In this document: positions 32,688-36,256 of the stretch, in pieces
Layout of the letters: the number at the start of each line of letters is the position of its first letter
Position numbering within the stretch: the stretch's first letter is position 1
Assembly (NCBI GenBank): GCA_040387635.1
Contig: JAZKDJ010000001.1
Span: 1 to 49,850, forward strand
From: Patescibacteria group bacterium
Lineage (GTDB): Bacteria > Patescibacteriota > Minisyncoccia > Phycocordibacterales > PALSA-1337
Length of the DNA: 49,850 nt
Direction of reading: 5' to 3'
Position numbers and translations under genes: made by a program
The notes under the pieces: generated by a model
The model's database searches: none
Told to the model about the DNA's origin: nothing
Seen by the model: the letters and a program-made list of their open reading frames with translations, nothing else

Positions 32688-32723
32688 GCGCCGCAACCCC
32701 TTCAGGTTGCGGCGCTTATTTTT
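32688..32723 (+). terminator. Intrinsic terminator
   Basis: GCGCCGCAACC-CCTTCA-GGTTGCGGCGC-TTATTTTT. Confidence 0.8.
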
Positions 32724-32778
32724 ATGGCCGTTAATATATTTTGCCAAATCCAAAAAATTCTGTATACTTTTTCATACC

Positions 32779-33381
32779 ATGACATCTCACAACGAAGACA
32801 ACAAAAAAGACGAAAACGAGCAGCCAGATGAATTCATCATCGAATCCAGCGACCTCGATGACTCTGTTGTAGCTGAAGAATCAGCGCAAGAAACTATCAA
32901 GAAACTCCGCGAAAAGCTCAAGCTTTGCACGAAAGAGAAGCAAGAATATCTCGATGGATGGCAGAGAGCTAAAGCGGAATTTGCCAATGCTCGAAAGCGA
33001 GACGCTGAAGCACAAGCAGAATACAGAAAGTTTGCGAACATGGGACTCGTGGAAGAACTCCTACCTGTACTCAGTAGCTTCGACATGGCTTTTGGTAACA
33101 AAGAAGCTTGGGAGAAAGTAGACAAGAACTGGAGAATGGGCGTGGAATATATCGCTAACCAACTCAAGGGAGTTTTGGAAAATAACGGCATCAAAGAGAT
33201 TGATCCATTGGGTCAACCTTTCGATCCGAACAGGGATGAGGCAATCGAATACATACCGACAGACAAGGAAGGTGAGGATAACTTAATTCTCAAGGTGGTG
33301 CAGAAAGGATATACTTTAAACGGTAAAACAATTAGAGCACCAAAAGTCCATGTCGGCGAACATAAGAAGACGAACCATTAA
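32779..33381 (+). CDS. grpE: Nucleotide exchange factor GrpE
   Basis: WQRAKAEFAN.RKR, ELLPVLSSF, FDPN..EA, VVQKGY.LNGK.IR.PKV.V; ATG 32779 preferred. Confidence 0.95.
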   Translation: MTSHNEDNKKDENEQPDEFIIESSDLDDSVVAEESAQETIKKLREKLKLCTKEKQEYLDGWQRAKAEFANARKRDAEAQAEYRKFANMGLVEELLPVLSSFDMAFGNKEAWEKVDKNWRMGVEYIANQLKGVLENNGIKEIDPLGQPFDPNRDEAIEYIPTDKEGEDNLILKVVQKGYTLNGKTIRAPKVHVGEHKKTNH

Positions 33382-33958: not shown

Positions 33959-33982
33959 ATAAGGCTCTAAAGCCTCGAAACC

Positions 33983-34297
33983 ATGCTTATAACCCAACCA
34001 CAAGGGCATATTTTCGATAGAGTACTGCGCACCAAGGAAGGAAAACTAGTGCGAGTGACTTTTGTCGTTGTATCAGTAGGCGGCGAACTCAAAGCCAAGG
34101 TTTTGAATATTGCTCCTCTTGAAGGACACCAGCCGACACTCAAAGCAGCTGAGATTCTCGCACTCCCAGGCAAGGTTTCAAAAGTTTCCATACTTCCTCA
34201 GAAGAAAACAGGCTTCGAATACAAAAGCATTCTTTCTCCGCTCCAGAATCTTAACTTTTTCATAAGCCAACCAACACGAGCACCATCTACAGTTTAA
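33983..34297 (+). CDS. 104-aa ORF upstream of dnaK; candidate ribosome-arrest (monitor) peptide
   Basis: No signal peptide or TM; C-terminus NFFISQPTRAPSTV with RAP at 34277-34285; possible promoter TTGCGG-N18-TAGAAT at 33921-33950. Confidence 0.7.
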   Translation: MLITQPQGHIFDRVLRTKEGKLVRVTFVVVSVGGELKAKVLNIAPLEGHQPTLKAAEILALPGKVSKVSILPQKKTGFEYKSILSPLQNLNFFISQPTRAPSTV

Positions 34298-34336
34298 GTT
34301 CCGAATTTAGTTTCTACTAAAAGTCTAACTTAAACT
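34291..34336 (+). promoter_or_regulatory. Stem-loop linking the leader stop codon to the dnaK initiation region
   Basis: AGTTTAAGTT (34291-34300) pairs perfectly with AACTTAAACT (34327-34336); inner stem TTTAGT-TTCT-ACTAAA; ends 3 nt before the dnaK ATG. Confidence 0.65.
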
Positions 34337-34339
34337 ATC

Positions 34340-36256
34340 ATGTCAAAAATCATTGGTATTGACCTGGGTACCACTAACTCAGCTGTAGCTGTAATGGAAG
34401 TAGGTACTCCAAAAATATTGGAAAACGCAGAAGGACAGAGAACAACTCCATCGATCATTGCTCAGTCAAAAACTGGCGATCGATTGGTAGGTCTTCTTGC
34501 ACGACGACAGGGTGTTACAAACCCAAAGAACACTATCTATCAGATCAAGCGATTCATCGGACACAACTTCGATGAATCTCAGATCCAGAAGGACAGGTCC
34601 TCAGTGCCATTCGAAATGCAGAAGTCAGCTAACGGAGGTATCGAGGTAAAGATGGGCGACAAATGGTATCGACCAGAAGAGATTTCCGCGATGATCCTCA
34701 CGAAGCTCAAGAATGACGCAGAGACACGACTTGGTGAGAAAGTAACTCAGGCTGTTATTACAGTTCCCGCATACTTCAACGATGCGCAGCGACAGGCAAC
34801 GAAGGATGCTGGTAAAATCGCAGGACTCGAAGTTATGCGAATCATCAACGAGCCTACAGCAGCGGCACTCGCATACGGATTCAACAAAAAAACAAATGAG
34901 AAAATCGCAGTCTTCGACTTCGGTGGAGGTACATTCGATATCTCAGTACTCGAAGTGGGTGATGGAGTCGTGGAAGTGCGATCAACTGACGGAGACGCGC
35001 ACCTCGGAGGTAAGGATATCGACCAGAAGGTCATTAACTGGCTTGCAGACACCTTCAAGAAAGAAAATGGCGTAGATCTCATGAAAGACCCTCTCGCAGT
35101 ACAGCGACTCGATGAGGCGGCTGAGAAGGCAAAGATTGAGCTCTCTACAGCAGTTCAGACTGAGATCAATATTCCGTTCGTAACATCAACAGCAGATGGA
35201 CCAAAGCACCTCGTTGTCACAATGACTCGAGCAAAGCTTGAGGAACTCACACAAGAGTTCATTGATCGCGCGATGACAATCACAAAGCGAGCAATGGAAG
35301 CTTCGCCATTCAAGGTAGGAGACATCAACGAAGTAGTTCTCGTAGGAGGCCAGACACGAATGCCAGCGCTCCAGGCAGCAGTGAAGAACTTCTTCGGCAA
35401 AGAGCCTCACATGGGTGTTAACCCAGACGAAGTAGTGGCAATCGGTGCCGCTATCCAGGGAGGTATTCTCGCAGGAGATGTCAAAGACGTTCTCCTCTTG
35501 GACGTTATCCCACTATCACTCGGAATCGAAACTATGGGAGGAGTTGCAACTAAGCTCATCGAGAAGAACACAACTATCCCAACTTCGAAGTCACAGACAT
35601 TCTCAACAGCTGCAGACAACCAGACTGAAGTAACTATCCACGTTGTGCAGGGTGAGCGACCAATGGCGTCAGACAACAAGTCTCTCGGTCAATTCAACCT
35701 TGGAGGAATCGCTCCTGCACCTCGAGGTATGCCGCAGATTGAAGTTGCATTCGACATTGATGCCAACGGAATTCTAAGCGTCTCAGCAAAGGACAAGGCG
35801 ACCAACAAGACAAACTCAATCAAGATCACAGCAAGCTCAGGCCTTTCAAAGGAAGAGGTTGAGAAAATGAAAAAGGAAGCCGAGATGAACAGCGCCGACG
35901 ACCAGAAGAAGAAGGATACCGTTGAAGCTAAGAACCTTGCGGAACAGCTCATCTACACAAGTGAGAAATCTCTCAAGGAACACAAAGACAAGATCCCTGA
36001 GGACGTAACGAAATCAATTGAAGAAAAGATCACAGCTCTCAAGGGCGTGAAAGATGGACAGGATCTCGCTGCAATCAAGTCAGCAACTGAAGCCCTCTCA
36101 AACGAACTCTCAAAGATCGGAGAGATCATCAGCAAAGCCGCTCAGGAAGAGCAAGCTAAGGCTGGAGCTCAAGGAAATCAGGGCCAGCAGGGAGGTGATC
36201 AGGGAAATGGTGGAGACGAGAAAGTACGAGATGCGGAAGTGAAGGACAATAAGTAA
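34340..36256 (+). CDS. dnaK: Chaperone DnaK (Hsp70)
   Basis: [59 protein letters not shown]. Confidence 0.98.

Follow-up and report, generated by a model that had tools for sequence, protein, structure and literature searches.

The force-sensing arrest peptides that have been characterised well are all known as monitors of protein export or membrane insertion. SecM, for instance, ends in ...GIRAGP. Between its stall site and the downstream start of secA lies a stem-loop, and a ribosome that stalls on SecM disrupts it (summary in PMC10987492). In uDF_RQH_Enterobacterales, a RAPP-like arrest opens a stem-loop at the initiation region of the downstream secDF2, for which Fujiwara et al. (2024) presented stem-disrupting mutations and a premature-stop control (PMC10987492). 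For ApcA, ApdA and ApdP, no hairpin that sequesters a Shine-Dalgarno (SD) sequence was found or could be predicted (PMC7897499). Here I describe a hairpin of 46 nt between the chaperone gene dnaK and the open reading frame (ORF) of 104 codons that precedes it, ORF104, in a 49,850-nt stretch of Patescibacteria DNA (the window, C1:1-49850 of genome G000, which consists of a single contig of 566 kb). This hairpin is a selected RNA structure that is tied to an ORF ending with an R-A-P motif, and I consider it somewhat probable that it makes the initiation of dnaK depend on a ribosome at the end of ORF104, in a SecM-like switch of arrest and stem-loop. By analogy with the systems above, the arrangement suggests that chaperone synthesis could be controlled by a paused ribosome, and a literature search gave no description of an arrest peptide upstream of dnaK.

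The closest functional parallel of the ORF104-dnaK pair appears to be the RQH-family peptide upstream of secDF2, and its arrest core seems to resemble that of ApcA. Like SecM-secA, the pair shows R-A in the C-terminal motif, a putative stall site few codons before the stop, an intervening stem-loop and co-transcribed genes. However, ORF104 is cytosolic and lacks a signal peptide and any hydrophobic segment of transmembrane length, its R-A-P-S would be stalled with Pro in the P site (in SecM the P site holds Gly, and Pro is in the A site), the target is a chaperone and not a Sec component, and there is no sequence homology. The SecM-secA geometry that had been proposed in an initial annotation of the locus, made from the letters alone, applies to the stem that runs from stop to start with its 5' arm in reach of a stalled ribosome; it does not apply to the start site itself, as dnaK has no SD to sequester and its ATG is unpaired. 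The actinobacterial ApcA (RAPG, upstream of yidC2) and its RAPS, RAPA and RAPT homologues share with ORF104 an R-A-P followed by a small non-proline residue, and the stall of ApcA has Pro in the P site, as that of ORF104 would. ApcA has a transmembrane segment and monitors YidC, and ORF104 belongs to another phylum and another protein family. The RQH peptide differs in being a secretory monitoring substrate that is SD-dependent and has Pro in the A site, in contrast to a cytosolic ORF104 in an SD-less genome, with Ser in the presumed A site and dnaK as the target. ORF104 is not a member of the SecM, ApcA or RQH families. Neither does it look like a monitoring substrate for Sec or YidC, since besides the missing signal peptide and transmembrane segment, it is dnaK, and not a sec gene or yidC, that follows on the same strand in 108 of the 109 family members that I collected (the last locus is cut by the end of a contig).

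The hairpin at the ORF104-dnaK junction

The outer stem joins AGTTTAAGTT to AACTTAAACT, which is its perfect reverse complement (10/10) and ends 3 nt (ATC) 5' of the dnaK ATG at 34340 (Table 1). The initial annotation had claimed this 10/10 stem, its 3-nt distance to the ATG and a 6-bp inner stem, and both the sequence and RNAfold agree with it. The 5' arm had been described as the last Val codon plus TAA; both lie inside it (Val104, GTT, and the stop codon at 34295-34297), together with the last base of Thr103 and three bases of the spacer. The minimum free energy (MFE) structure and the centroid are both this hairpin, at -12.6 kcal/mol. On positions 34286-34345 its z-score is -3.54, and none of 200 dinucleotide shuffles folds as well; when the folded segment starts at the A-site codon and runs up to the ATG, the z-score is -4.40, again with none of 200 dinucleotide shuffles as stable. 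The same hairpin is retained in the 111-nt context (34260-34370) on which the initial annotation had suggested running RNAfold, where the z-score of the entire segment is only -1.63. The stem covers positions -49 to -4 of dnaK. Scans of the window for Rfam families and tRNAs gave nothing at this locus, and a repeat or mobile element was rejected, as the 46-nt element occurs only once in the genome.

Table 1. Coordinates in the window of the hairpin, of the ORF104 features and of the surrounding operon
Feature	Position	Strand	Remarks
Outer stem, 5' arm AGTTTAAGTT	34291-34300	+	+8 to +17, counted from the first base of codon 101 (Pro)
Outer stem, 3' arm AACTTAAACT	34327-34336	+	-13 to -4 relative to the dnaK ATG
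Inner 6-bp stem-loop	34306-34321	+	TTTAGT (34306-34311), 4-nt loop TTCT, ACTAAA (34316-34321)
ORF104 ("leader"), 104 aa	33983-34297	+	Disordered tail ending ...NFFISQPTRAPSTV before the stop; ORF list, AlphaFold model
R99-A100-P101-S102 (CGA GCA CCA TCT)	34277-34288	+	Proposed stall: P site at Pro101 (34283-34285), A site at Ser102
Conserved C-terminal block S85-S102 (SPLQNLNFFISQPTRAPS)	34235-34288	+	Proposed arrest sequence in the exit tunnel; alignment and C-termini of 109 loci
Hydrophobic patch ILALP, ORF104 residues 58-62	34154-34168	+	
dnaK	34340-36256	+	Canonical N-terminus; no SD; no leaderless-type -10 box
grpE	32707-33381	+	Pfam GrpE, E 2.8e-39; first gene of the grpE-ORF202-ORF104-dnaK unit
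ORF202, 202 aa	33350-33958		Between grpE and ORF104; no Pfam match
Promoter-like site at grpE	32741-32768		Consensus promoter scan
Terminator upstream of grpE	32688-32715		Consensus terminator scan

The spacer between the stop codon of the ORF and the dnaK ATG was compared over 108 loci, in which it ranges from 27 to 1727 nt. In 28 of these, from 13 families, the spacer measures 27-76 nt, and in 22 of these short-spacer loci the RNA from the A-site codon up to the ATG folds with significant stability (z <= -2.6). Of these 22 hairpins, 21 contain the stop codon in their 5' arm, and 20 combine this with a 3' arm that ends 1-13 nt before the ATG. The 5' arm of these 20 conserved hairpins starts at a distance of 3-11 nt (median 5) downstream of the Pro codon's first base, which is within the footprint of a stalled ribosome, as had been anticipated for the window alone. 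The lack of comparable hairpins in orthologous spacers had been named in advance as an argument against a switch; instead, stop-spanning hairpins are present in 20-25 of the 28 short-spacer orthologues, with compensatory changes. L111, a divergent member found while gathering controls, has the same stop-spanning stem, which ends 5 nt before its ATG.

The stems of different loci share no sequence, and in a MAFFT alignment of 15 short spacers they are too divergent to align; hence the pairing was assessed by permutation across loci and in an alignment of three congeners. In the alignment-free permutation test, the 5' half of each locus was paired with the 3' half of every other, and the mean duplex energy is -11.7 kcal/mol within loci vs. 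-4.5 kcal/mol across loci, with none of 20000 permutations reaching the observed mean. Among the three congeners, whose alignment is unambiguous, a non-conserved codon of the tail that reads TTT, AAT or TAT is matched by AAA, ATT or ATA in the 3' arm, and four pairs have changed on both sides. L045 carries an insertion of 22 nt in the loop but retains the same outer stem as the related loci L042 and L047. The covariation that the initial annotation proposed to look for in the leader-dnaK spacers is therefore found where these measure up to 76 nt, and not in most of the longer ones.

As a control within G000, I counted the stop codons paired to the next start region in co-directional gene pairs, and found 8 in 126 pairs with spacers of 20-80 nt, and 3 in 60, ORF104-dnaK included, with spacers of 27-60 nt; several of the eight are GC-rich terminators. 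Two other measures discriminate less well. The looser criterion that the first MFE domain covers the stop codon is a weak test, as it applies to 37% of all G000 genes, and a comparison of coupling pairs in the MFE structure with mononucleotide shuffles is uninformative for short spacers, in which the windows overlap.

The relatives without ORF104 provide a further control. Their grpE-dnaK spacers (10-96 nt) are unstructured in 12 of 13 cases (z -1.25 to +1.5), the sole exception being L119 in G054, a very strong GC-rich palindrome (z -9.4, with the folded spacer at -47 kcal/mol) that resembles no other ORF104-less spacer. Hence, it is the RAP-ending ORF, and not dnaK by itself, that the hairpin accompanies. 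This distribution speaks against a generic terminator at dnaK, and also against the possibility that the stem is an RNA thermometer (of the ROSE or fourU type), which would melt on heat shock and raise the translation of dnaK independently of ORF104. In favour of a thermometer, dnaK is a heat-shock gene, the stems are rich in A and U and modestly stable (in most loci between -7 and -18 kcal/mol), and dnaK should need some other control, as hrcA is missing from G000 and HrcA from 400 of the 401 genomes of the order, and the CIRCE repeat TTAGCACTC-N9-GAGTGCTAA has no match in G000 at up to 4 mismatches. Nevertheless, I regard a thermometer as highly improbable, since besides the unstructured dnaK leaders of ORF104-less relatives, the 5' arm is translated even in loci where the spacer is long enough to avoid this (51-76 nt), the AUG is unpaired, and an SD is absent.

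The C-terminal motif and a possible switch

The AlphaFold model of ORF104 shows a confident N-terminal beta-meander of three strands (residues 9-45), followed by a disordered tail. The protein has no Pfam match, and a fold search of the model against the PDB gave nothing better than E 0.1. Within the tail, the R-[AG]-P motif is present in all 109 loci, and together with the small residue that follows, it is the only feature that is invariant throughout the family. The residue after R-[AG]-P is S in 59 loci, A in 23, T in 15, N in 10, and D and G in one each, and in 95 of the 109 loci 2-4 variable residues follow the Pro. The RAP codons vary synonymously among loci, from which it follows that selection acts on the peptide. 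In the window, the Pro101 that the initial annotation had located at 34283-34285 is encoded there by CCA. The RAP-type motif acts on the ribosomes of both E. coli and B. subtilis in other peptides.

This C-terminus matches an arrest signature of the ApcA/RAPP type, to judge from known peptides. In ApcA, ApdA/ApdP and the RQH family it is the third residue of R-A-P-X that occupies the P site of the stalled ribosome, and RAPS, RAPA, RAPT and RGPx variants are found among the relatives of ApcA (PMC7897499; PMC10987492). The A-site residues that support the arrest of ApcA are P, and then C, N, T, S, G, D and A (PMC7897499), and every residue found at this position in the ORF104 family falls within this set. 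ApcA arrest needs additional residues upstream (PMC7897499). In the ORF104 family, SP[YF] occurs at a fixed distance of -16/-17 from the Pro, in a tail that is otherwise variable, and a hydrophobic patch, phi-[L/C]-L-P, lies at about -37/-38 across the family (-39 in G000), even though the linker between the beta-domain and the patch varies in length by up to about 25 residues. These positions would fit a location of SP[YF] inside the exit tunnel and of the patch just outside of it, and the patch is a candidate DnaK-binding site.

From these elements, the following switch can be proposed. On free mRNA, the stem would tie up the region upstream of the dnaK ATG and hinder the loading of the 30S subunit, as is to be expected in a genome that makes no use of SD sequences and needs an open A/U-rich leader. 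The nascent chain ...FFxSQPTRAP would then block peptidyl transfer to Ser-, Ala-, Thr- or Asn-tRNA, by analogy with ApcA and RAPP-type peptides. Arrest toeprints are located at +15 to +17 (PMC7897499). A ribosome with Pro101 in the P site would hold the mRNA up to about +13, i.e. the outer 5-6 bp of the 5' arm, which would free the 3' arm beside the ATG and leave about 40 nt for an initiating subunit. The geometry of the stall site can be read directly from the letters, and the opening of the stem is predicted by modelling: with a block up to +13, the modelled unpaired fraction of dnaK -18 to +3 rises from 0.43 to 0.61 on average, and it increases in 26 of the 28 short-spacer loci. The length of the pause would set the translation of dnaK.

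What could end the pause is a matter of speculation. The likeliest signal would be free DnaK acting on the exposed nascent chain, which would amount to negative feedback on chaperone capacity. At a pause on R-A-P-S, the phi-[L/C]-L-P patch would be about 37-39 residues from the peptidyl-transferase centre, just outside the exit tunnel. Free DnaK could bind the patch, pull on the chain and release the arrest, upon which the hairpin would close; once DnaK is titrated by unfolded proteins, the pause would last longer and dnaK would be translated. In this case, ORF104 would be the first monitoring substrate for a cytosolic chaperone, an idea that I put forward tentatively and consider rather doubtful. 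In the known circuits, sigma32-DnaK in E. coli and HrcA/CIRCE with GroEL, free chaperone shuts off its own synthesis via a transcription factor. The logic proposed here is alike, except that the sensor would be a nascent chain on the ribosome instead of a transcription factor, and the circuit would replace control of the sigma32 or HrcA type in an SD-less Patescibacteria order without HrcA.

If true, a RAP-type arrest peptide with a SecM-like hairpin on dnaK would extend the force-sensing principle to cytosolic folding capacity, and would offer a testable answer to how Patescibacteria with reduced genomes regulate their main chaperone, in an order without HrcA and a genome without CIRCE and without use of SD sequences. 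With its short ORF, known motif and 46-nt hairpin, the system is simple to dissect experimentally.

Longer spacers and interrupted loci

Homologues of ORF104 were found in 38 of 61 relatives and in 34 of 36 other genomes sampled from the same family, the remaining two of which are without a dnaK hit and probably incomplete. In the order they are present in 82 of 401 genomes (about 20%), and essentially nowhere else in the phylum. The protein database holds more than 835 homologues; all those named by their source are called "hypothetical protein", none has a Pfam domain, and the named ones are from Patescibacteria/Paceibacterota. The homologues are always situated between grpE and dnaK. In relatives without the ORF, grpE directly precedes dnaK, which makes the ORF a lineage-specific insertion between the two.

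A number of observations weigh against the proposed switch, or at least against its being the only mechanism. At the locus itself, the dnaK ATG lies outside a stem that is only moderately strong, and the local folding energy upstream of dnaK ranks 60th among 573 genes. According to PMC12992588, arrest by RAP-S and RAP-A is weaker than that by RAPP. The stem would be melted by any ribosome that arrives at the stop codon, and the hairpin alone is therefore no proof of arrest. In the family, spacers exceed 76 nt in 80 of 108 loci (about 74%), and for spacers of 77-200 nt the pairing between stop and start is not clearly above that of shuffles; some loci of this class (L010, L012, L037, L063 and L103) have kept a long-range outer stem from stop to start. 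In 18 of the 48 loci with 77-200-nt spacers there is a hairpin followed by a U-tract. Several spacers are interrupted by genes, and none of these interrupted loci has lost the RAP motif. As RAP is kept in spite of the inserted genes, the ORF must have a role that is independent of the compact hairpin, possibly in the control of a terminator, in the stability of the downstream mRNA or in trans. This is the main weakness of a reading with a single mechanism, and the compact geometry is one of several architectures. Finally, folding is as good on the antisense as on the sense strand of the hairpins, and G-U accounts for only 20 of 458 pairs, so that the pairs do not reveal which strand is selected.

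This strand symmetry, as well as the repeated arrival of genes in the spacer, could also be expected from a palindrome acting at the DNA level, such as an operator or a hot spot for recombination or insertion, or from an inverted repeat that arose by chance in A/T-rich DNA. I hold either to be extremely improbable. The stems have no conserved sequence for a protein to recognise, the element has no second copy in the genome, and complementarity is specific to each locus and maintained by compensatory changes, as is evident from the permutations; a chance repeat is excluded by the z-scores.

The insertions are of different kinds. An antisense gene is located between ORF104 and dnaK in L002 (1818-2012), the closest relative of G000, in L009 (1860-2111) and in L035 (645-869, all in ORF104-sense coordinates), and these genes form a family of proteins of about 65-84 aa (...WCR[IV]D[ED][LI]). 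A DUF167-like sense gene of 70 aa follows ORF104 in L003, L018, L028, L048 and L107, and there are other insertions elsewhere. Genes thus seem to have been inserted into this spacer repeatedly. In the interrupted loci, where a control of dnaK in cis is impossible, the persistence of ORF104 and its motif speaks for plain translational coupling without programmed arrest. A terminating ribosome would melt the hairpin and hand over to, or allow loading at, the dnaK ATG, which would fix the ratio of ORF104 to DnaK, and the RAP motif would serve the mature protein, e.g. as the tail of a DnaK-binding or DafA-like co-chaperone. With the stop codon inside the 5' arm in nearly all significant hairpins, a terminating ribosome would open the entire stem, and the confidently predicted beta-meander suggests a function for the protein. 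DafA of Thermus thermophilus is a small protein encoded in the dnaK operon, a structural assembly factor that is not known to have an arrest-type motif or a stop-to-start hairpin. ORF104 likewise is a small lineage-specific protein in a grpE/dnaK cluster. However, an invariant R-[AG]-P with a small residue, followed by a tail of variable length, is the pattern of an arrest peptide and not that of a C-terminal binding motif, and blocks at fixed distances from the Pro in a variable disordered tail fit a positioning in the ribosomal tunnel. I therefore think coupling alone to be rather unlikely, even if it is to be taken seriously.

The hairpins with a U-tract raise another possibility, i.e. that the structure is a terminator or attenuator, or a hairpin for mRNA processing or stability, which splits the grpE-ORF104 transcript from dnaK and may be modulated by the ribosome. 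An inverted repeat at the end of a gene is the default anatomy of a terminator. The U-tract hairpins were counted with a procedure that replaced a finder of perfect stems, which had missed bulged ones. In addition to the 77-200-nt class, they are present in 8 of the 32 loci with the longest spacers, and in most loci of the two classes taken together they start 4-21 nt past the first base of the stop codon; in the 77-200-nt class they begin 5-21 nt past this base in 17 of 18 loci, and 59 nt past it in L060. Examples are L010, L037, L077, L094, L095, L071 and L049. These hairpins could be arrest-controlled attenuators, or simply the end of the grpE-ORF104 transcript. The short-spacer hairpins are different, as a U-tract is found in just one of 28. 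The hairpin of the window, which the initial annotation thought not to look like a terminator, has a GC content of 26%, is not followed by a U-tract, and is not reported by the terminator scan, whereas the real terminators of G000 are GC-rich with U-tracts. Moreover, the interval that separates the stem from the ATG is too short to hold a promoter and lacks a -10 box, so that termination would silence dnaK. For the compact hairpin, a terminator or processing element is clearly improbable. With compact hairpins, spacers that contain terminators and interrupted loci, the family forms a natural comparative series for the coupling of arrest peptides to downstream genes.

The operon and its genome

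ORF104 and dnaK are the last genes of the unit that begins with grpE (Table 1). ORF202 gave no tblastn match in any of the 29 other loci first collected, and seems, on this comparison, to be specific to this genome. The spacer of 24 nt between ORF202 and ORF104 holds a 6-bp hairpin (AAGGCTCTAAAGCCTC, 33961-33976), which in the scan is terminator-like on the minus strand only. A scan for promoters found nothing promoter-like between ORF104 and dnaK. Other ORFs of G000 that end in RAP look spurious, and there is no second system of this kind among them. A bypass of the T4 gene 60 type was also rejected for the ORF104-dnaK junction, as a landing codon to match the take-off GTT is missing from the 3' part of the spacer, spacers vary over the range given above, and the N-terminus of DnaK is normal.

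G000 does not use Shine-Dalgarno sequences: an SD-like 4-mer is present upstream of 10% of its genes vs. 14% of random windows, and upstream of dnaK there is none. A -10-like TANNNT hexamer that ends 7-8 nt before the ATG is found at about 20% of the genes that come first in an operon and at about 15% of closely spaced internal genes, and leaderless mRNAs appear to be widespread in this genome. A leaderless dnaK promoter inside the stem was nevertheless rejected, as dnaK is without a -10 box in every spacer class of the family. With neither an SD nor a leaderless -10 box, dnaK relies for its translation on an mRNA that is leadered and co-transcribed. The dnaK leader (34327-34339 in the window) is A/T-rich and nearly free of G in most of the 108 loci. 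The words TTAAC, TAACT and AAACT recur in these leaders, often as AACT(A)ATG directly before the start, and may represent a signal for SD-independent initiation or a tract that binds S1.

A/T-rich hairpins from stop to start were also observed at two more gene pairs of G000, at C1:50740-50790 and C1:473570-473620, with spacers of 37 and 38 nt, respectively. These are possible further cases of translational coupling, and in the hairpin at C1:50740-50790 the 3' arm overlaps the ATG that follows.

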